In this document: one piece after another, positions 5,381 through 50,740 of the stretch
Layout of the letters: each line of letters starts with the position of its first letter
How positions within the stretch are numbered: position 1 is the stretch's first letter
The notes under the pieces: model-generated
Told to the model about the DNA's origin: nothing
The model's database searches: none
What the model saw: only the letters and a program-made list of their open reading frames with translations
Translations under genes and position numbers: made by a program
NCBI GenBank assembly: GCA_963771355.1
Contig: CAVYTA010000007.1
Coordinates: 748,586 to 812,585, forward strand
Direction: 5' to 3'
From: an uncultured Candidatus Rokubacteria bacterium
GTDB lineage: Bacteria; Methylomirabilota; Methylomirabilia; Rokubacteriales; CSP1-6
Length of the DNA: 64,000 nucleotides

Positions 5381-6178
5381 GTGACGAAGCCTCTGACCGT
5401 TCTCTGCGTGGGGGATGTCTTCGGCGATCCCGGTCGCCGCGCGGTGCACACCCTCCTGCCCAAGCTCCGCAAGCAGTACGAGGTGGATCTGGCGGTGGTG
5501 AACGTCGAGAACGCCGCCGCCGGCTACGGGGTGACGCCCGAGATCGCGCGCGCCTTCCTCTCCGACGGCGTGGACGTGATGACCTCCGGGAACCATACCT
5601 GGGACCGGAAGGAGATCATCGAGTACATCGTGAAGGAGAACCTCCTCCTCCGTCCCGCCAACTATCCGCTGGGGACACCCGGCGCGGGCTCGGTGGTGGT
5701 GAAGGCGGGGCCGCACAAGGTCGGAGTCCTGAACGTGATGGGCCGGGTATTCTTCCCCCAGCATCTGGACTGCCCCTTCCGCAAGGCCGACGAGGAAGTG
5801 GCGCGCCTGCGCCAGGACACGCCGATCATCGTGGTGGACGCCCACTGCGAGGCGACGTCGGAGTCGCAGGCGCTCGGGTGGTATCTCGACGGGCGGGTGA
5901 GCGCGGTGGTGGGCACCCATCGCCACGTGCAGACCGCGGACGAGCGCGTGCTCACGCAGGGGACGGCCTACATCACGGATCTCGGCATGACCGGGCCGGT
6001 GGATTCGGTGATCGGCGTGGACCCGGAGCTGGCCATCGGCCGGTTCCTCACCCAGATGCCCAATCGCTTCGTGCCCGCCAAGGGGCCCGTCGCGCTGCAC
6101 GGCGTGGTCATCCGCATCGATCCGGAAACCGGCAAGGCCCTCGGGATCGAACGCCTCCGGGTCCCCGCTCCCGCCTAG
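5381..6178 (+). CDS. ymdB: YmdB-like metallophosphoesterase (TIGR00282)
   Basis: GDVFG, NVENAA, TSGNH, DAHCEATSE, GTHRHVQTAD and DLGMTG motifs; follows rny. Confidence 0.93.
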   Translation: MTKPLTVLCVGDVFGDPGRRAVHTLLPKLRKQYEVDLAVVNVENAAAGYGVTPEIARAFLSDGVDVMTSGNHTWDRKEIIEYIVKENLLLRPANYPLGTPGAGSVVVKAGPHKVGVLNVMGRVFFPQHLDCPFRKADEEVARLRQDTPIIVVDAHCEATSESQALGWYLDGRVSAVVGTHRHVQTADERVLTQGTAYITDLGMTGPVDSVIGVDPELAIGRFLTQMPNRFVPAKGPVALHGVVIRIDPETGKALGIERLRVPAPA

Positions 6179-6190
6179 CCCCCGCCGCCC

Positions 6191-7042
6191 TTGATTCTCG
6201 ACGGCAAGGCGGTCGCGGCGAAGGTCCTGGCCGAGGTCAAGGCCGGCGCCGCGGCCTACCGGGATCGAACTGGTGCGCCCCCCACCCTCGCGGTCGTCCT
6301 CGTGGGCGAGGATCCCGCCTCCGCGCTCTACGTCCGCAGCAAGAAGAAGGACGCGGAAGAGGTGGGCATCGCCTCGCGCGACTTCCTCTACCCCGGCGGG
6401 TGCTCCCAGTCGGAGCTGCTCGCGACGATCAAGTCGATCAACGCGGATCGCGGCATCCACGGCGTCCTCGTCCAGCTCCCCCTGCCCAAGGGGCTCAACG
6501 AGGACGAGATCATCGCCGCCATCGCCCCCGAGAAGGATGCCGACGGCCTCCACCCGATGAGCCTCGGCCATCTGCTCGCGGGCAAGCCGACCATGGTCCC
6601 GTGCACGCCCGCCGGCTGTCTCGAGATCCTCGACCACTACGGCATCCCGCTCGAGGGCGCGGAAGCGGTGGTGGTGGGCCGCTCGCGACTGGTGGGCAAG
6701 CCGCTCGTCCAGCTCCTCGTGGCCCGCCACGCCACCGTGACCACCTGCCACACGCGCACGCGGGATCTCGCCGCGCACTGCCGGCGCGCCGACATCCTCT
6801 GCGTGGCCGCCGGCCGAGCCCGCATGATCACCGGCGACATGGTGAAGGACGGGGTGGTGGTCATCGACGTGGGGACTAATCGGTTGGAGACGGGGAAGTT
6901 GGCGGGCGACGTGGACTTTGCCTCCGTGAGCCCCAAGGCGCGCGCCATCACGCCCGTGCCGGGCGGGGTCGGCCCCATGACGCGTGCCATGCTCATGCGC
7001 AACACCCTCCGCGCCGCCCAGCGGCAGGCCGGCCTCGTATGA
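6191..7042 (+). CDS. folD: Methylenetetrahydrofolate dehydrogenase/cyclohydrolase
   Basis: LVQLPLP, KDADGLHP, PCTPAG and TPVPGGVGPMT motifs. Confidence 0.97.
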   Translation: MILDGKAVAAKVLAEVKAGAAAYRDRTGAPPTLAVVLVGEDPASALYVRSKKKDAEEVGIASRDFLYPGGCSQSELLATIKSINADRGIHGVLVQLPLPKGLNEDEIIAAIAPEKDADGLHPMSLGHLLAGKPTMVPCTPAGCLEILDHYGIPLEGAEAVVVGRSRLVGKPLVQLLVARHATVTTCHTRTRDLAAHCRRADILCVAAGRARMITGDMVKDGVVVIDVGTNRLETGKLAGDVDFASVSPKARAITPVPGGVGPMTRAMLMRNTLRAAQRQAGLV

Positions 7043-8617: not shown

Positions 8618-9507
8618 GCTTCGATTTCGAGGCCTACATGAAGGACCGGGCGCGCGCGGTGGACGCGGCGCTCGAGCGCGTCCTGCCCCCCGAGAGCCGC
8701 GCGCCCGCCACCCTTCACCGCGCCATGCGCTACAGCATCTTCGCGGGGGGGAAGCGGCTGCGCCCGGTGCTGGTGATCGCGGGGGCGGAGGCGGTGGGCG
8801 GCCGGATGGAGCCGGTGCTGCCGGCGGCCTGCGCGCTGGAGATGATCCACACCTATTCGCTCATCCACGACGACCTGCCCGCGATGGACAACGACGACTA
8901 TCGCCGCGGCCGCCCCACCAGCCACAAGGTGTTCGGCGAGGCCATGGCCATCCTGGCCGGTGACGGCCTGCTCACGCACGCCTTCCGCCTGCTCGCCGAC
9001 TGCTGGCAGCCGGGCATGGACGGCGCCGTCCTCCGCGACGTGGTGGTGGATCTGGCCGACGCCGCGGGCACCGATGGCATGGTGGCGGGGCAGGTGGCCG
9101 ATCTGGAGGCGGAGGGGCAACGGGTCGGCGCCGACATGCTGGACTACATCCACCTGCACAAGACGGCGGCGCTGATCCGCGCGTCCATCACGGTGGGGGC
9201 CCGGCTGTCCGGCGCCGGCGGCGAGGCCCTCCGCGCGCTGGCGGTGGCGGGTCAGGCGCTGGGGCTCGCCTTTCAGATCGTGGACGACATGCTCGACGTC
9301 ACCGCCACCAGCGCCCAGCTCGGCAAGACCGCCGGCAAGGATCAGGCGCAGCAGAAGGCCACCTATCCGGCCGTCCACGGGCTACCCGCCTCACGAGCCC
9401 GCGCCGAGGCGCTCACCGGCGAGGCGCTCGACGCGCTGGCGCCGCTGGGCCTGCCCGCCGAACCCCTCCGTGCGCTCGCGCGCTTCATCCTCGAGAGAAA
9501 GGCCTAG
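8614..9507 (+). CDS. ispA: Polyprenyl (farnesyl) diphosphate synthase
   Basis: GGKRLRP, LIHDDLPAMDNDDYRRG, FQIVDD; GTG start overlaps xseB stop. Confidence 0.93.
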   Translation: MSFDFEAYMKDRARAVDAALERVLPPESRAPATLHRAMRYSIFAGGKRLRPVLVIAGAEAVGGRMEPVLPAACALEMIHTYSLIHDDLPAMDNDDYRRGRPTSHKVFGEAMAILAGDGLLTHAFRLLADCWQPGMDGAVLRDVVVDLADAAGTDGMVAGQVADLEAEGQRVGADMLDYIHLHKTAALIRASITVGARLSGAGGEALRALAVAGQALGLAFQIVDDMLDVTATSAQLGKTAGKDQAQQKATYPAVHGLPASRARAEALTGEALDALAPLGLPAEPLRALARFILERKA

Positions 9508-13247: not shown

Positions 13248-13311
<64 letters not shown>

Positions 13312-13324
<13 letters not shown>

Positions 13325-13401
13325 ACAAACACAAGGGGTTCGGCGCTCTCGCCGAGCCCCTTTTGTGTCTCAGTTGGCCGACTTGTCCCGAAACTTGTCC
13401 C
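13312..13401 (+). repeat. att junction 1: tRNA 3' end plus conserved arm
   Basis: GCCCCCGCAACCA-ACAAACACAAGGGG hairpin, then ACTTGTCCC twice; recurs at ~17.7, 28.0, 33.4 and 50.7 kb. Confidence 0.85.
13329..13368 (+). terminator. Terminator-like hairpin within the att arm
   Basis: AAGGGGTTCGGCG-CTCT-CGCCGAGCCCCTTTT. Confidence 0.6.
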
Positions 13402-13406
13402 TTCGC

Positions 13407-13540
13407 GGGGCGACCATGGCGCTGAGCGCCGGGTTCACGGCGCCGATCGTTGATGGCGGCCCTTGGCATGGAAGACGGAACGGACGATGCGGAGGTATGC
13501 GGCAGTGACGGATCAGACTCTCCGGGCGGCGGCGGAGCGT
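13407..13540 (+). pseudogene. Tyrosine recombinase C-terminal remnant
   Basis: Across frameshifts reads GATMALSAGFTAPIV..WKTERTMRRYAAVTDQTLRAAAE, resembling box II with the catalytic Tyr. Confidence 0.6.
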
Positions 13541-16999: not shown

Positions 17000-17277
17000 A
17001 TTCAGCCTTGTATGACGGGATCCTACTCAGGTGTTGCGTATGAGCGATCAGCCGACGTCGCGCTCGGAGAGCAGGTTGGTTTCATCGAGCAGTAAGGCGA
17101 GCTTGCGCCCCGCCGGGTCGGTGGCGTTGCCGGAGAAGCGGAGGGACAGTGTCCTCTCGCCTTCTTCCCGCCCGGAAGACGATCCGCTCGCGGTGATGCG
17201 CAGTCAGGGGGACTCGCCATGGTTGTCGCGCCGGCGGTGACACGCGGGACTTTGTTGACCGGAGCCGTGCCGACAGG

Positions 17278-17685
17278 AGGATAGGTAGCATGAACGCCTC
17301 CGGCGGCGGTGGCCCCGTCTGTGGGCGCCGTCCCCGTGACATAAGGTGCCAGACCCGAACGCTGGCCGCCCCAGGAGCCGACGGCACAGCGCACATTAGC
17401 GGCCTGCTCGCGGGTCGAACGAGCCGACCCGAGTGAGCGGCATGCTATGCCAGACACACCGCCGCCGTCAACCGGCCACGGACCGGCCGGAGCCGCGGTG
17501 ATGGCGCCTCGTGGGGCGTCCGCCGCGCCCCCGAGCAGATCGGATCAGGACTTAGTGGCATGCGGTTTTCGAGGTGGCGGTGCGCGTAAAGCTGCTGAGA
17601 CATTTGGTGAAAACGTGGCCGTGACGAAACACGGGATTCAAATTCGAATCTCGAACTTGAACTCGAGGGACCTGTCGCCTGCAAG
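17278..17685 (-). mobile_element. Internally deleted, non-autonomous IS91/ISCR-like element
   Basis: 17278-17551 matches the transposase-downstream end of the elements at 25876 and 48464, up to the tnp stop; ~17594-17685 matches their upstream end; no transposase. Confidence 0.8.
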
Positions 17686-17755
17686 TGGTTGCTGGCCCCC
17701 GAAACTAAAAGAACACAAGGGGTTAGCGATTACGTCGCTAGCCCCTTCGTGTTTT
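17686..17755 (+). repeat. att junction 2 (degenerate palindromic core plus arm hairpin)
   Basis: TGGTTGCTGG-CC-CCCGAAACTA, then ACACAAGGGG...CCCCTTCGTGT. Confidence 0.7.
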
Positions 17756-25690: not shown

Positions 25691-25875
25691 GCCCGGACGA
25701 ATGTTAATCCTAGCAGCACCGTTCGCTCGGAAAGGCTGTCCGTATCGCTTTCATACAGTGAGCCACCGGTAGCGGGAAGGTGAAGTCGGGCGGGCCAGCG
25801 GGGCACGGAACATGGTAGCCACTTTCGGATTCGCGTTAGCTTTCTGGCAACCCAGCCTTGCGTGCTCCCTCGACG

Positions 25876-27968
25876 AGGATAGGCAACATCAACGCCCTCC
25901 GGCGGCGGGCGCCCCGCGCGTGGCCCCCGTCACCGTGACATAACCGCCCAGACTCGGACGCCGGCCGCCCCAGGAGCCGATGGCACAGCGCACATTAGCG
26001 GCCTCCTCGCCGATCGGCGAGCCGACCCGGGTGAGCGGCATGCTAGGCCAGACACACCGCCGCCGTCAATCGGCCGGGACCGGCCGGATCAGCACGGATG
26101 TCACCTCGCGGCGCCGGCACGCGGCGTCCGCCGCGCCCCCGAGCCGATCCGATCAGGACGCGGCGGCGCCGGACTCGGGTGGGGCGGGGCCGGGACTCTG
26201 CCCTGAGGGGCCGATCCCCAGGTGCGCGAGGATCTTCCGGATGACGGCGGGATCGTGCAGCGTGGCGATCAGGCGCAGCCGGCCCCCACAATGGGGACAC
26301 GCCAGAACATCAATGGCGAACGCCCGGTGCATCAGCGCCGCCCAGCTCCAGGCGCGCGGACTGCGGTCTTCACCCCCGTGTCCTCCGGACCTGCGGCCCG
26401 CGGCGCCGTCAAGGCCGTGGGCTCGGGCACCACGCGTCCGTACGCGACCACGCGCGCGCGCCAGCGGGCACGCGCGGCCAACAGGCCATGGCAGATCAGC
26501 AGGTTCGTTTCCGGCCGCGGCGTCATCGCCGCCAGACCGCTCCAGCAACTCCAGCGGCTCGAACACCAGCTCGCGCGTGCCGTCGTGCCACGCCGTCTTC
26601 AGCTCCAGCGCGATGCGGCCGTCGCTCCGCAGCCGCAGGCGCTCCTGCGCGAAGGGCGGACGCAAGATATATCTGCACAGCCGCTCCAGCCCCGCCCGAT
26701 CGTTCGCCGACACCCACACGTTGGCGTGCAGATCGAAGCCCTCCAGGTGCGCCTGCCGCGGCCCGCGCGACGTCACGGTCGCCGTGTCGCGCGCGTCGCC
26801 GAGCCGCCGCACCCGCGCCCCCGCGCGGGGGCCCAGCGCCACCCGCCCCTGCACCGAGGCGCCCGACGATCCCCGCCAGCACGGGGGACTCGTCCGCGAG
26901 CCGATCCGCCGGCCCCGTCGCGTCGTCGGCCGGGCTCCAGGCCGCGGCGCACCAGCAGCCGTTGCACCCGGTGGCGGATCGTCGCCAGCGCCGCCGCGAC
27001 CTCGGCGTCGCTCGGCCCCGGCGCCGGATGAAACACCAGCGCGCCCCCGGGCGCTTCGGTGAACACCCCGTCCAGCACGAGGGTGTGAAAATGCACGTTC
27101 GCGTTCAACGCCGCCGCCCGCGCGCTGCATCGCCGTGACCATGCCGGTCTGCCCACCGGCGATGCCGCGCGCGCGCGCGCCGCGCCGGTACACGTCGAGC
27201 AGCACGCGCGTGTACACCCGCAGCACCGCGCGGCTCAGCCCGTGATTCCACGCCATCTGGTAGCGCAGCCGATACGGCACCGTCAGCACCCACTGCCGCA
27301 CCGGCACCCACGGCAGCACCGCGTCCACCAGATGCGCCGCGCGCTCCGTCATCCGCCGGCCCCCGCAGCTCGGACACCACCCCCGCCCTTTGCACGAAAA
27401 CGGCACCAGGTGCTCGCGCGCGCAGCCCTCGCACCGAAACCGCGCCACGCCGGCCTCGAACACGCCGCACGGCAGGAACTCCCGGAACTCGCGCTCGACG
27501 AACTGCGGCAGGCCCGCGCCGTCGCCGGCCTCCGCCACCGCGCCCAGGAAGGCCTCCAGATGCTCGGCGATGACCTGATGGAGCACGGTGTGCTCGGCGT
27601 CTCGCGGGGCCGGTAGACCGCTCGCGGGAAGGCCATGGCCCCCAGGTGCGGTCAGGGCGCCGACCGGGACAATGCTGAGAGATTGATACACCGAATAGGG
27701 GGGGGATGGCGGCGGCCGAACCGCTGCCGGCGGTGCGTTTACGGTCCGGAACGGTGGGGAGGGCAACCTCGCGCGCGGCGACACGTGGTGTGACCCGGGG
27801 AGGGCGGTGGTCTGGGTGTCCATGGTCTGGCTGGAGCTGGATGGTCCTCCTCGCCTCCAGAGCACATCGAGACTTCTGGGGGAGCCGAGGGAGTGCGCAG
27901 GGAACGTCACGGACGGATTTAGATCGGGATCTCGAGAGCAGAAGCTCAGCGACCTGTTCGCCGGCAAG
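25876..27968 (-). mobile_element. IS91/ISCR-like element, copy 1
   Basis: oriIS-like end (minus strand GTTGATGTTGCCTATCCT) at 25876; upstream region shared with copy 2 runs to the att palindrome; ter boundary uncertain. Confidence 0.85.
26153..27636 (-). CDS. IS91/ISCR-family HUH transposase, frameshifted
   Basis: Zn-binding CEGC...[21 protein letters not shown] motif HFH, LERLCRYILRP. Confidence 0.9.
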
Positions 27969-28067
27969 TGGTTGCGGGCCCCCGCAACCAACAAACACAA
28001 GGGGTTCGGCGCTCTCGCCGAGCCCCTTTCGTGTCTCAGTTAGCCGACTTGTCCCGAAACTTGTCCC
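27969..28067 (+). repeat. att junction 3 (perfect palindromic core plus arm)
   Basis: TGGTTGCGGG-CC-CCCGCAACCA, then an arm nearly identical to 13325-13401. Confidence 0.9.
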
Positions 28068-28100
28068 TCGCCGAAGCCTCTCTCGGCCCTACAACACCCA

Positions 28101-33401: not shown

Positions 33402-33430
33402 ACTGCCAAGGACCTCCCGTTGCTGGTCGA

Positions 33431-33548
33431 GCCCCCGCAACCAACAAACACAAGGGGTTCGGCGCTCTCGCCGAGCCCCTTTCGTGTTTCAGCTAGCCGA
33501 CTTGTCCCAAAACTTGTCCCACGCCGAAGCCGTTCCTGGCCCTACAAC
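33431..33548 (+). repeat. att junction 4 (tRNA 3' end plus arm, no left palindrome half)
   Basis: GCCCCCGCAACCAACAAACACAAGGGG...ACTTGTCCC twice...GGCCCTACAAC. Confidence 0.88.
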
Positions 33549-35101: not shown

Positions 35102-35482
35102 CGCGGTTGGGCGAGGCGGTCACGCACCGCGGCGGCCATCTGCGCCACCGTGGCCGCTTCTAGGATCACGGCCAGTGAGAGTTCCAGGCTCCACGTGGCC
35201 AGCACCTGCGATGCGATGCGCATGGCGGCGAGGGAGTCCCCCCAGGTCGAGGAACTGATCGTCGATGCCCACTGAGTCCAGATCGAGCACCGACGCCCAG
35301 AGGTCGGCGAGCCACCGCTCCAGCTCGTCGCGCGGCGGCGCGTACTGCGTGTCGAGGGGATAGGCAACCAGGTCGAGGAACTGATCGTCGATGTCCACTG
35401 AGTCCAGATCGAGCACCGACGCCCAGAGGTCGCCGAGCCACCGCTCCAGCTCGTCGCGCGGCGGCGCGTACTGCGTGTCGAG
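35095..35482 (-). pseudogene. NRPS-type carrier (PCP) domain 3' fragment, partly duplicated
   Basis: YAPPRDELERWLADLWASVL..VGIDDQFLDLGG(D)SLAAMRI; starts at the oriIS repeat. Confidence 0.75.
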
Positions 35483-35616
35483 AGGATAGGCAACATGAAC
35501 GCCCTCCGGCGGCGGGCGCCCCTGGCTTGGGTTCCCGTCACCGTGCTTGGGTCCCGTCCCCGTGACACAACCTGCCGGACTCGGACGCCAGCCGCCCCAG
35601 GAGCCGCCGGCACAGC
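35483..35616 (-). repeat. oriIS-end repeat R5 (diverged, internal ~20 bp duplication)
   Basis: AGGATAGGCAACATGAACGCC...CCAGGAGCCGCCGGCACAGC. Confidence 0.9.
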
Positions 35617-40766: not shown

Positions 40767-40770
40767 CAGG

Positions 40771-40895
40771 AGGATAGGCAACATCAACGCCCTCCGGCGG
40801 CGGGCACCCGGGGGTCCGCACGGCGTGGGTCCCGTCCCCGTGACATAACCTGCCAGACCCGGACGCTGGCCGCCCCAGGAGCCGACGGCACCAGC
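40771..40895 (-). repeat. oriIS-end repeat R4
   Basis: AGGATAGGCAACATCAACGCC...CCAGGAGCCGACGGCACCAGC. Confidence 0.9.
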
Positions 40896-41172: not shown

Positions 41173-41624
41173 ATGTTCTGTTCCTCCTGCGGCCGATGAT
41201 CGCCCAGATTCGATAGCCGCACAAGGGCGAGATCCAGCCGGCTGCCAGTTTGGTTCCAAGCAAGAGTGCATCCCCGCCTCGTTTTCCAGCAATCCTGGGA
41301 CTTCACCTGCCAGTCTGCTACCTGCTACCAAACTGCTACCCAAAGGCCCCCGTCAGCCCTCCCGCAGGGTTACGCCCCGGCCGCGGATTCCAGACCCTCC
41401 TCTCGCGGGAATGCTTCGTCGCGGCGGCTCGTCGAAGGATAGTCCCGAACGCGCCGGCCGGTTGACGGCGGCGATGTGTCCGGCATAGCATGTCCCTCAC
41501 TCGGCGGCTCGCTCGACGTGTGAAAAGGCCGTTGGAGTCCAAGATGATCCGCCTCGACACGCGCGCACGGGCGTCCGCGCTCGTACTACTCCTGTGTTCA
41601 TGCGTCACACCGAAGGAGACTTCT

Positions 41625-42299: not shown

Positions 42300-42569
42300 G
42301 CTCGGTACAACGAGTGTTCGGCGTGGTGGTCGGGCGCATTCGAGGCCACGTCGTCGAGAGTTTGTGGGCACGCTGGCCGCCGACGAGGTTCGGAAGCGGT
42401 ACCTCGATCGGTACGTTGGCCACGTTTTTCCTGCTGGTGCACGGAACCCGATCAGGTACCTGAACCTTCGCAAGAAGCCCGCTAAGCGCACGCTGCGCGC
42501 TAGAGCGGATCGCTAGCTCGCATGCATCCGCCCCAGCCGCCCGAGGTCGCGCTGGGGGCCCTCTTCAAG

Positions 42570-42627
42570 AGGATAGGCAACATCAACGCCCCCCGGCGGC
42601 GGGCACCCCACGCGTGGTCCCCGTCCC
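42570..42627 (-). repeat. oriIS-end repeat R3 (58 bp, shortened)
   Basis: AGGATAGGCAACATCAACGCC...GTGGTCCCCGTCCC. Confidence 0.88.
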
Positions 42628-45119: not shown

Positions 45120-45395
45120 CGGGGCAACTGGCTGCACTCGTTGTGCCCGTGACCTCGGCGATCTGCGCTGCGCAAACTCGGGCGGCCGGGCCAGGGAACC
45201 CTGGCGGGCTGCGGCATGCCCCCGGGCGAGAGTGATCACCCCGCGTTCCTTCCTCGACGCGTTCTGACTTCGACTTATACTGCTTCGCGCCGGCCGCACC
45301 GTCAAGGCCCCCCTTTGGCCTCGGGGGCAGCGACACCTGAGCCCACGGGCTGAAAAGCTAGAGGAACCCGAGCGCGCCCAGCGCCACCCTCCTTG

Positions 45396-45509
45396 AGGAT
45401 AGGCAACATCAACGCCCTCCGGCGGCGGGCACCCTACGCGTGGCCCCCGTCCCCGTGACCTAACCGCCCAGACTCAGACGCCAGCCGCCCCAGGAGCCGC
45501 TGTCACAGC
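45396..45509 (-). repeat. oriIS-end repeat R2
   Basis: 114 bp; 3 substitutions versus 48464-48577 by eye. Confidence 0.93.
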
Positions 45510-46074
45510 GACCTTCTTGCCGCCCGAGAGTGGAGGCCGTCAAAAGCCGCCAGCGTTGCCGGGCTACCGGCCACATTTCGTTGTCGACGGCACGACTGAC
45601 TATCTCGGCGTCATCTTCACCAAAGCGGGTGCGGCGCCAGAATTCGGGAAAGCCGTCCGCGCGACAGCTCAGTGCGTATACGACGGCGTCGACTACTCAC
45701 GCCGGTTGCCCGGGACCCGGTTCAACGTCGTCGAGGGTACCCGCGTCGTCGCGCACGGCGTTGTTCTCCGATTGTTCTCCCACGATAGCGAGCGCGCACC
45801 CCTGCCGACGACGCCAGACCTTTTCCGCGAGGAGCTTCGACTTTACGTGACTCTTGCTCGGCAGCTTGGCCGAAATCGAAGAGGTCCACGGTCAACCGGC
45901 GAGTGTCGTTCTCGAGCGCTGGATCTCGCGCGAAGAATCGGCGCGCCGCTTCGATCGGGCTGTGCGGCGCGGCGGAATATCTGCAACCGTTCCTGTGCTG
46001 CCACTCCCTCAGGCAAGCAGCAAAGGAATCACGCTCAACGCCTCGTCTCGTACCTGGTCAGGACGGAATCACGC

Positions 46075-46638
46075 TCAACGCCTCGTCTCGTACCTGGTCA
46101 GGACCACGCCGCCGGGAAACGTCCGCGTCTCCACCAGGTTCAGGTTCACCCAGCTATCCAGCGCGGTGAAGAACGGTGTGCCGCCGCCCACCAGCACCGG
46201 ATGGGTCACGATCTCGTACTCGTCGATCAGCCCGGCCCGCATGGCCGCCCCAGCGAGCGCTGCGCCACCAACCCTCATCGGCTCGCCGTCCTCGGCCTTG
46301 AGCCGGGTGATCTCCGCGACCGCGTCGCCGGTGACCAGGCGAGTGTTCCAGTCGACCTTGTCGACCGTCGAGGAGAACACCACCTTCGGCGTATCCCGCC
46401 AGTTCCGCGCAAACTCGATCTGCGCCGGGGTGGCACCCGGCTGCTGGTCGCCGGTCGGCCAGTAGGAACTCATGGTTTCCCACAGCTTGCGCCCGTACAA
46501 CAACAGGCCGATCGCTAGCTCCTGGTCGAGCCACCACTGAAACAGCTCGTCGCTCGGCCCGCTCCAGCCGAGGTCGTCGCCGGGCGCGGCGACGTAGCCG
46601 TCCAGGGTCAGGTTCATGCCGTAGATCAGTTTCCGCAT
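46075..46638 (-). CDS. Dihydrofolate reductase (RibD C-terminal) family protein
   Basis: MNLTLDGY, LLYGRKLWE, PKVVFSST, GLIDEY, PVLVGGGTPFF. Confidence 0.9.
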   Translation of the reverse strand: MRKLIYGMNLTLDGYVAAPGDDLGWSGPSDELFQWWLDQELAIGLLLYGRKLWETMSSYWPTGDQQPGATPAQIEFARNWRDTPKVVFSSTVDKVDWNTRLVTGDAVAEITRLKAEDGEPMRVGGAALAGAAMRAGLIDEYEIVTHPVLVGGGTPFFTALDSWVNLNLVETRTFPGGVVLTRYETRR

Positions 46639-46964
46639 GGCGCCATGCCTTTCTGTCAGTCGGTTTCGGGAGTCTAGACCGGCTCGGCGCAGACAACTGA
46701 TCAATGCGCGATCTGCTTTACAACTTTCACGGGCTCGAATGCCGCTTCACCCATCCCGATGGCACCGTCGTCGATGTCGCTCTGACCACGCTTCGCCGTG
46801 GTGAACTTGTTGTCGTCGATTTCGCGGCTGCGGTGCCGATCGATGCAGGATTCCTCGCTGAGTTCTGTAGAACACGCCCCGGAGGCAAGCTGCCCCGTCT
46901 CGACTTCGCGGGCGCGTTACGACAGCTCGACGCTCTGGGAGCCCAAGGGGAGCTCGCCGTCCAG

Positions 46965-47077
46965 AGGATAGGCAACATCAACGCCCTCTGGCGGCGGGCA
47001 CCCCACGCGTGGCCCCCGTCCCGTGACCTAACCGCCCAGACTCGGACGCCAGCCGCCCCAGGAGCCGCTGTCACAGC
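46965..47077 (-). repeat. oriIS-end repeat R1
   Basis: Identical to 48464-48577 except one C in a homopolymer. Confidence 0.95.
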
Positions 47078-47458
47078 GTCCTCGCCGACCGCTCGCAGTT
47101 CTTCAAGGATCTCAGCGCCCCGTTCTACGGCGCCAACCGGCCGGGGGCCAAGGTCTCACAAGGGCTGCGCGACTCCTTCTGGCTCCAGGGGATGCAGGCC
47201 GGGTTCAAGGGCGTCATCGATTGCATCAAGGCCTTCTCGGAGACGAACTTCACCGAGGACCTCAAGAAGATCGACGTGCCGACCCTGATCCTGCACGGCG
47301 ACGACGACCAGATCGTGCCAATCGGCGCCTCGGCCCTCCTTTCCGCCAAGCTGGTCAAGGCGAACATGCTGAAGGTCTACCCGGGCCTGCCCCACGGTAT
47401 GTGCTCGACCCACAAGGACCAGGTCAACGCGGATCTTCTGGCCTTCCTGAAGGGGTAG
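47078..47458 (+). pseudogene. Non-heme chloroperoxidase (alpha/beta hydrolase), 3' half only
   Basis: [19 protein letters not shown]...[17 protein letters not shown]...HGMCST; starts mid-gene at the R1 boundary. Confidence 0.88.
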
Positions 47459-48441: not shown

Positions 48442-48628
48442 GCCGGGGTCATCATTTCACGAGAGGATAGGCAACATCAACGCCCTCTGGCGGCGGGCAC
48501 CCCACGCGTGGCCCCCGTCCCCGTGACCTAACCGCCCAGACTCGGACGCCAGCCGCCCCAGGAGCCGCTGTCACAGCGCACATTAGCGGCCTCCTTGCCG
48601 ATCGAGCGAGCCGACCCGGGTGAGCGAC

Positions 48629-48658
48629 ATGCTAGGCCAGACAGACGGCCGCCGTCAA
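48629..48658 (-). promoter_or_regulatory. Outward-facing promoter in the element, directed toward oriIS
   Basis: Minus strand TTGACG, 18 nt, TAGCAT; conserved at 26040-26069, 17442-17471 and inverted at 41462-41491. Confidence 0.65.
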
Positions 48659-48744
48659 TCGACCGGTGGACCGGCCGAATCAGCACGAATGCCACCTCGC
48701 GGCGCCAGCACGACGGCGTCCGCCGCGCCCCCGAGCCGATCCGA

Positions 48745-50224
48745 TCAGGACGCGGCGGCGTCGGACTCGGGAGGGGCGGGGCCGGGACTCTGCCCCGAGT
48801 GGCCGAGGGCGAGGTGCGCGAGGATCTTCCGGATGACCGCGGGATCGTGCAGCGTGGCGATCAGGCGTAGGCGGCCTACACAATGGGCACACGCCAGCAC
48901 GTCGATGCCGAACGCCCGGTGCATCAGGGCCGCCCAGCTCCAGGCGCGCGGACTGGCGGTCTTCACCCCCGTGCCGTCCGGACCTGCGGCCAGCGGCGCC
49001 GTCGAGGCCGTGGGCTCGGGCACGGGCCGTCCATAGACGACCACTCGCGCGCGCCAGCGTGCGCGCGAGGCCAACACGCCATGGCAAATCAGCAAGTTGG
49101 TTTCGGGCCGCGGCGTCATCGCCGCCAACCGCTCCAGGAACTCCAGCGGCTCGAAGACCAACTCTCGTGTCCCGTCGTGCCACGCCCTCTTGAGCTCCAG
49201 CGCGACGCGGCCGTCGCCCCGCAGCCGCAGGCGCTCCTGCGCGAAGGGCGGACGCAAGACGTATCGACACAAACGCTCCACCCCCGCCCGATCGTTCGCC
49301 GGCACCCACACGTTGGCGTGCAGGTCGAAGCCCTCCAGGTGCGCCTGCCGCGGCCCGCGCGACGGCACGGCCGCCGTGTCGCGCGCCTCGCCGAGCCGCC
49401 GCACCCGCGCCCCCGCGCGCGAGCCCAGCGCCACCCGCCCCTGAACCGAGGCCCCGACGATCCCCGCCATTATGGGGGACTCGTCCGCGAGGGGATCTGC
49501 CGGCCCCGTCGCGTCGTCGCCGGGCTCCAGGCCCCGGCGCACGAGCAGCCGTTGCACCCGCTGGCGGATCGTCGCCAGCGCTGCCGCGACCTCGGCGTCG
49601 CTCGGTGCCGGCGCCGGCTGAAACGCCAGCGCGCCCCCGGGCGCTTCGGTGAACACTCCGTCCAGCACGAGGGTGTGAAAGTGCAGGTTCACGTTCAACC
49701 CGCTGCCTGCGCGCTGCATCACGGTGACGCTGCCGGTGCGTCCACCCGGCACGCCGCACTCCCGGGCGCCGCGCGCGTACACGTCGAGCAGCACGCGTGT
49801 GTACACCCGCAGCACCGCGCGGCTCAGTCCGTGATTCCACGCCATCTGGTACCGGAGCCGATACGGCACCGTCAGGACCCACTGCCGCACCGGCACCCAC
49901 GGCAACACCGCGTCCACCAGATGCGCGGCGCGCTCCGTCATCCGCCGGCCACCGCAACTGGGGACACCACCCCCGCCCTTTACACGAAAACGGCACCAAA
50001 TGCTCGCGCGCGCAGCCCTCGCACCGAAACCGCGCCACGCCGTGTTCCAACACGCCGCACGTCAGAAACTCCCGGAACTCGCGCTCGACGAACTGCGGCA
50101 GGCCCGCGCCGTCGCCGGTCTCCGCCACCGCGCGCAGGAAGACCTCCAGGTGCTCGGCGATGACCTGGTGGAGCACGGTGTGCTCGGCGTCGCGGGGCCG
50201 GTAGACCGCTCGCTGGAGGGCCAT
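48745..50224 (-). CDS. IS91/ISCR-family HUH transposase (one frameshift near 49960)
   Basis: Zn-binding Cys cluster, [11 protein letters not shown] (HUH), [11 protein letters not shown] (single-Tyr ISCR type), C-terminal CxxC. Confidence 0.92.
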
Positions 50225-50649
50225 GGCCCCCAGGTGGGGTGACGCCGCCGACCGGGACAATGCTGAGAGAGTGATACACCGATCAGGGTGGGGATGGCGG
50301 CGGCCGAACCGCTGCCGGCGGTGCGTCTACGTTCCGGAACGGTCGGGAGGGCAGCCTCGCGCGCGCGGCGATCGCGTGGTGTGACCCGGGGAGGGCGGTG
50401 GTCTGTATGTCCATGGCGTCTGGCCGGAGCTGGATGGTCCTCCCCGCCTCAGAGCACATCGAACTCTGGGGTAGCCGAGGCAGTGCGCAGGGAACGTCGA
50501 GCGGCACATGTTCGGTGGCGTGCTGTTGTCGAGCTGGCGTGGACCGCACAGGTTCTGAGACATTTGGTGAACACGTGGTCGTGACTGAAACACGACGGAT
50601 TTAGATCGGGATCTCGAAGCAGAAGCTCAGCGACCTGTTCGCCGGCAAG

Positions 50650-50740
50650 TGGTTGCGGGCCCCGCAACCGACAAACACAAGGGGTCGGCGCTTCCGCCGA
50701 GCCCCATGTGTCGGCTAGCCGACTTGTCCCGAAACTTGTC
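50650..50740 (+). repeat. att junction 5
   Basis: TGGTTGCGGG-C-CCCGCAACCG, then ACAAACACAAGGGG hairpin and ACTTGTC twice. Confidence 0.85.

Follow-up and report, generated by a model that had tools for sequence, protein, structure and literature searches.

Partial copies of an IS91/ISCR-type rolling-circle element in a Candidatus Rokubacteria genome retain the outer origin end (oriIS) and break off at a fixed inner point, directly after the motif CACAG, where they are joined to host DNA that mostly presents a G before and a C after the join. With a probability of roughly 0.45, we posit from the sequence patterns that this CACAG^C inside oriIS might act as a second, terminator-like strand-transfer site of the transposase that creates cassettes. 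The window analyzed here, a stretch of 64,000 nucleotides, is present as a whole or in part in 24 public runs from 11 studies.

The repeats of the window are oriIS ends of an IS91/ISCR-type rolling-circle element. Eight copies, all in the same orientation, begin with the word GAGGATAGG(C/T)A.CAT (starts at 17277, 25875, 35482, 40770, 42569, 45395, 46964 and 48463), and two of these run on into opposite-strand genes matching Zn_Tnp_IS91 and Y2_Tnp (Pfam), with both PF14319 and PF04986 above the Pfam cut-off for the genes adjoining full copies. The transposase displays an HFH motif and, within RYVLR, a single tyrosine, the latter being the ISCR pattern, and a 398-aa piece shows 36–39% identity to the ISCR1 and ISCR2/ISVsa3 transposases over 95–99% of the length. 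The repeat is called oriIS because its outer end lies about 280 nt past the transposase stop in both full window copies and is similar to the origin end of ISCR2. Consistent with a fixed oriIS end, profile position 1 is the start in 169 of 249 dereplicated profile hits and, as in the IS91/ISCR family, this end lies downstream of the transposase gene, with no terminal inverted repeats or target duplication. No consensus beyond A/G at −1 was found in 134 independent left flanks for a tetranucleotide target at oriIS, such as those of IS91, IS801 and IS1294; hence, the element is not IS91 proper and fits the ISCR side. In the terIS region, homology declines at more than one point, around 27908 and 28065–28068, and no clear site emerges. 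Named records carrying a matching origin end are mostly titled as Ca. Rokubacteria or Methylomirabilota, and no relative was found in the viral contigs searched. The bottom strand is the functional intermediate of IS91 (PMC13181058), and by analogy the plus strand of the window would be the transferred strand. The window carries the following features:

17277..17750, + strand: internally deleted element, directly preceded by a degenerate solo-end-like motif ending in ACAG
25875..28068, + strand: full-length element A, far end approximate
26153–28000, − strand: element A transposase, in pieces
35242..35493, + strand: 126-nt tandem that combines 113 nt of R5-upstream DNA with an origin head of 13 nt
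35482..35616, + strand: R5, solo oriIS end of 135 nt with an internal duplication, stops at CACAG^C
40770..40895, + strand: R4, solo oriIS end, CACCAG^C variant
42569..42627, + strand: R3, short solo oriIS end, a secondary deletion by comparison with loci L187 and L194
42628..45394, strand unspecified: passenger with a TPR-protein gene
45395..45509, + strand: R2, solo oriIS end of 115 nt, stops at CACAG^C
45510..46963: passenger after R2, an 88-codon open frame and then a RibD_C gene (46075–46704, − strand)
46964..47077, + strand: R1, solo oriIS end of 114 nt, stops at CACAG^C
47078..47458, + strand: alpha/beta-hydrolase gene, 5′-truncated, begins at the R1 junction
48463..50737, + strand: full-length element B, oriIS at 48463, far end approximate
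48560..48595, + strand: proposed stem-loop in element B, break between 48576 and 48577
48745–49941 (Y2_Tnp) and 48680–50260 (Zn_Tnp_IS91), − strand: element B transposase, two frames

A first-pass annotation of this DNA had observed that four of five solo repeats stop at CACAGC or CACCAGC. Its coordinates are correct, with the terminal C at 35616, 40895, 45509 and 47077, and the proportion can be raised to five of five: the copy at 42569 formerly had the full solo length, suffered a later deletion, and ends at CACAG in two other genomes (L187 and L194). We extended the sample to 164 copies that carry the origin without being full length, drawn from this genome, its relatives and metagenomes (the 249 dereplicated hits being their parent set). 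The search pattern, which yielded 130 metagenome and 26 genome loci, with further copies from relatives, was anchored on the outer 22 nt of the origin and is hence unable to bias the inner end; locus L393 was left out and no claim is based on the unpublished genomes G030 and G116. Within a span of only 6 nt (profile positions 113–118), 78 of the 164 stop at CACAG^C as compared to about 4% expected if the ends were uniform, with the proviso that kin are not independent; 92 stop at positions 111–122 and the other 72 are scattered over 28–175. The same inner end is also seen in diverged origin variants. The fixed inner boundary of the partial copies is confirmed, far beyond chance, and the solos, as IS801-type miniatures do, combine an intact origin end with a fixed internal end.

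The DNA that follows the break obeys a short joining rule. The base at +1 after CACAG is a C in 74 of 96 independent junctions, with +2 onward at background. This base is mostly not inherited from the element, given that full copies have T at +1 in 10 of 34 cases and never G, whereas among the 96 solos T occurs 3 times and G 13 times; likewise, among the GCCACAG variants, T is found at +1 in 7 of 12 full copies versus 1 of 41 solos (Fisher p 4e-5). In a small, hand-curated set of 15 intact homologues with identities of 74–96%, after removal of 11 self-match rows (100%), a G precedes the join at −1 in 14 of 15 (10 of 10 at 83% identity or more), two of the three hold-out rows agreeing and one disagreeing. 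GG precedes the join in 10 of 14, and the A which the element has at −2 is found in 0 of 15. Looser limits add two agreeing cases and one disagreeing case at 68–70% identity. Among 11 intact homologues of the hydrolase gene, the sequence at the position of the R1 junction is ..G^C/A/T, with GG^C in 9 of them. Both partners thus share G^C and nothing longer, as a result of which the exact cut (CACA^, CACAG^ or CACAGC^) is not fixable, with CACAG^ fitting best. In three loci, CACA or CACAG is joined directly to the origin that follows. In L204 (~8916–9021), the insert of a solo begins within the transposase gene itself, at GG^C.

The word AATGATTGTGGACAG might have pointed to an ACAG^C target, but this argument was dropped, as the word may belong to the terminus of a different insertion sequence. 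It is inverted-repeat-like and abuts the origin in many unrelated loci (L004, L039, L060, L118, L119, L121, L130 and L339), and a related motif flanks, in inverted orientation, a segment of about 700 nt in L193 (4440–5162).

The sharp boundary and the G^C context on both partners lend support to the earlier suggestion that an element with an HUH transposase has a second, defined point of breakage or joining. We propose that the solos represent the first ~114 nt of oriIS, detached after CACAG and fused to host DNA at G^C, likely by the element's own HUH transposase. This enzyme would nick the plus strand after CACAG and, on the upstream side of an origin junction already present, nick the host DNA at (G)G^C, following which the CACAG 3′-OH would be joined to the host 5′ end. 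The predicted product is an origin head with a passenger unit, bounded downstream by the ordinary origin junction. Moving as a circle, it would gain access to other origins through recombination within the 114-nt repeat or through an exchange performed by the transposase at the origin nick, with one-directional arrays building up in front of the full element. The host end would be chosen by two to three bases and not by stem restoration. In the tandem at 35242–35493, an origin head of 13 nt is linked to a position lying 113 nt further upstream, which is the geometry expected for a newborn unit. However, this pattern is seen in 1 of 58 origin pairs (35242–35493 alone), which counts against the strand-transfer reading, as do the frameshifts of both window transposases (elements A and B) in the assembly and the finding that none of 23 units has a native homologue spanning both passenger ends.

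The left junctions bear on the main rival to this reading, in which the CACAG 3′ end is that of a nascent strand rather than a nick: origin-primed synthesis would stall at transposase bound to the GCACA repeats, and either the transposase or a template switch over 2 bases would then connect the strand with a host 5′ end. In 145 independent left flanks, the origin head is duplicated as GA in 31 (about 10 expected), as GAGGAT in 8 and as GAGGATAG in 2, and further duplications measure 13, 20, 69, 112 and 113 nt; an ISCR2/ISVsa3 copy (L256 2522–2721, LC807807.1) shows a 99-nt tandem duplication of its origin end. The short duplications suggest abortive initiation and rejoining. Their many lengths fit a polymerase-made 3′ end equally well and in this respect count against strand transfer. 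The same holds for the reciprocal product: no origin-less version joined at G^C was found among 42 distinct right-arm copies. A stalled strand would also be in keeping with the invariant bases being loop bases (see below). Nevertheless, a stall alone would produce neither an edge sharp to 1–2 nt nor the GG^C bias of the host, and template switching should prefer longer homology, while −2 matches in 0 of 15. On balance, we see the stalled strand as a serious though rather doubtful explanation. In one locus (L002), three origin-head duplications stand in a row.

The solos are not simple mini-insertions because their flanks are non-contiguous: an intact homologue of the left flank continues into the right flank in 0 of 12 cases, and the native upstream sequence equals the left flank in 0 of 16 rows. 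A codon-frame test of contiguity places 2 of 8 in frame, these 8 being the only informative junctions. Several groups, including that of R2, display one left flank with differing passengers. Further, the 2.8-kb TPR unit before R2 is found at 95–98% in two further genomes, where other solos and passengers adjoin it on either side, the inner part of R4 with 567 nt of its passenger recurs on contig C6 at 98.8%, and crossovers are visible inside solos. This recurrence with changed neighbors indicates that units of solo and passenger move and reshuffle. The R4 passenger also contains an inverted fragment of the element's inner region (41454–41520), where the C6 copy of the passenger stops. In the R2 passenger, the RibD_C gene carries a short direct repeat, about 39 nt in length, at its 3′ end (46026–46104).

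Crossovers of this kind would be expected if the 114-nt piece transposed alone as an IS801-type miniature and inter-repeat recombination later swapped its flanks, with loss of contiguity. Such transposition has been shown for IS801 with pieces of 229, 360 and 679 nt (PMC3189936). However, the single target and contiguous flanks of those miniatures are not seen here, as the above counts of 0 of 12 and 0 of 16 indicate, and ordinary origin junctions and inner-junction targets are preceded by different bases (p 1e-5). We therefore hold independent transposition of the miniature to be improbable. G-richness was not seen to the left of the ordinary origin junctions (35 of 103 after removal of origin-head duplications); thus, a single target cut does not yield both junction types as its two halves, which counts against the strand-transfer reading.

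A G^C core might alternatively reflect another recombinase (host, serine or IS110 type) acting at the break point, as these enzymes typically act on sites that have a central dinucleotide in common and an IS110 element lies within the origin head in L327. Yet, the inner junctions lack a second element or a symmetric site, and the direct joins to the first base of the origin point to the element's own enzyme, which makes the involvement of an outside recombinase highly improbable. The L327 insertion (~5395–6880; IS110 family by Pfam) has subterminal inverted repeats and is situated inside the oriIS head, and ends matching it are present in many genomes of the family; oriIS may be the target of this element.

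The break had further been placed in the loop of a hairpin, AGGAG-CCGCT...AGCGG-C-CTCCT. Its position between the two arms stands (48560–48569 and 48585–48595 in element B), but the stem itself finds no folding or covariation support. The arms pair at 10/10 only in the 48463 copy, with 9/10 at 25875 and 7/10 at 17277, and on both strands the stem folds no better than shuffles (z −0.6 to +1.6). Across 28 full copies, 82% of the cells are paired, with one compensatory pair and two inner pairs kept in 29% and 61%, and covariation shows no excess over shuffles. A stable, covarying subterminal hairpin of the IS200/IS605 kind was not found. Hairpin recognition in the manner of IS200/IS605 TnpA is not supported, and the enzyme is of the IS91/ISCR type; a weak stem at the break point is possible. 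The invariant bases are mostly in the loop, forming a GCACA-N-GCACA-T-like direct repeat that rather suggests a protein site.

The companion proposal, that the hairpin is recognized and the insert end chosen for restoring its stem, draws on the starts of the R1 and R2 inserts, whose best match to the right arm is 10/10 and 9/10, respectively. This likeness is present (each about p 0.02–0.03 alone); what was claimed for R4 and R5 is no better than shuffles. We compared the left arm with the first 20–25 nt of the inserts, dropping rows that stopped off the motif, had an origin-like insert or offered <130 nt of flank. For the 69 of 96 junctions used in a first test, the energies were no better than those of dinucleotide shuffles or downstream windows. 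A second test drew on 82 of the 96 and 41 new ones as a hold-out set; its 119 non-window junctions (41 new) likewise gave duplex and folding energies no better than the controls on either strand (p 0.62–0.98). Thus, a choice of insert end guided by pairing with the left arm is not supported, nor was IS200/IS605-like target choice by base pairing with element sequence found; a guide of 2–4 bases by pairing is possible.

Complementarity against matched shuffles in the larger sample is accordingly null, apart from a very small excess of right-arm likeness, about +0.1 match in 10. The 119 junctions average 7.09 matches of 10 versus 6.97 and 7.00 in the controls (p 0.08 and 0.048, uncorrected) and the hold-out set 7.10 versus 6.84 and 6.98 (p 0.01 and 0.046, uncorrected), as against p 0.4 and 0.2 (uncorrected) in the old set. 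Matches of at least 9/10 occur in 5 of 119 (4.2%) as compared to 3.4% in shuffles, a distribution in whose tail R1 and R2 lie. The R1 look-alike was rejected as a restored stem: it is conserved hydrolase coding sequence, with the same bases in 11 intact homologues. The R2 insert, including its 88-codon frame, has no homologue by protein search, in 151 genomes or in Pfam, and hence a 10-nt internal deletion sparing the right arm is possible for R2 alone. Homologues of the R5 insert begin >100 nt from the junction. Despite the hold-out excess and the 82% pairing, stem-guided choice is largely refuted and, in our estimation, extremely improbable.

The far side of the elements displays a palindrome ending in a tRNA-3′-end-like word, a hairpin and CTTGTCC direct repeats (27967–28068, 50648–50737, 17683–17750 and also 13309–13429 and 33428–33548), which together resemble the attachment site of an integrative element, as is reported for CR2 in GIsul2 (PMC9376610). 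Internally deleted mini-elements, in which an origin piece of 22–160 nt is joined directly to the far side, are found in L028, L029, L044, L056, L091 and L155.

Among known systems, IS200/IS605 TnpA has in common with the window element HUH chemistry on single strands. However, it belongs to another enzyme family, and the window element has no supported hairpin or base-paired guide. Closer precedents come from IS801, for which early termination at fixed positions inside the element has been shown in vivo and whose right-end miniatures, like the solos, have an intact origin end and fixed internal end points and derive from full elements (PMC3189936). While those miniatures insert in one target site and end at target-like tetranucleotides, the solos are ~114 nt long and show non-contiguous flanks, no origin tetranucleotide and G^C at the inner joint. 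In ISCR28, the capture of armA as a "sandwich" (Yuan et al. 2024, via the description in PMC12772301) places the gene between two sequential origins and, comparably to the solos, leaves a remnant with an extra oriIS upstream of the gene; that second-hand description mentions no fixed inner break point or joining rule. Gene capture by ISCR1 and ISCR2/ISVsa3 is usually explained by read-through past terIS (PMC13181058), whereas in the window element DNA would be added at the origin side via an internal site. Circular IS91 intermediates with passengers have also been reported (PMC5737581).

A literature search that covered few subscription papers, and the ISCR28 work only through PMC12772301, returned no description of one internal site combined with non-contiguous flanks and a G^C rule for the host, and the term "delori" was not found in print. 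Within that range, IS801 early termination and ISCR28 two-origin capture are known, while the single internal oriIS site, the G^C host rule and the non-contiguous flanks appear new. Transposition has been demonstrated for no more than four members of the IS91 family (PMC13181058), and ISCR gene capture is still argued from sequence models. In this context, a fixed internal site with a host rule of two to three bases offers a precise and cheap biochemical test and explains the build-up of DNA on the origin side. If true, the strand-transfer site would give such elements a defined way to acquire genes. As a more tentative extension, which we presently rate as unlikely, ISCR-type transposases might use a dedicated second oriIS site to cut (G)G^C-bounded, origin-tagged cassettes from host DNA and stack them in arrays, in integron-like fashion with one HUH enzyme and no terIS; such a process may underlie origin-flanked captures in other ISCR elements.
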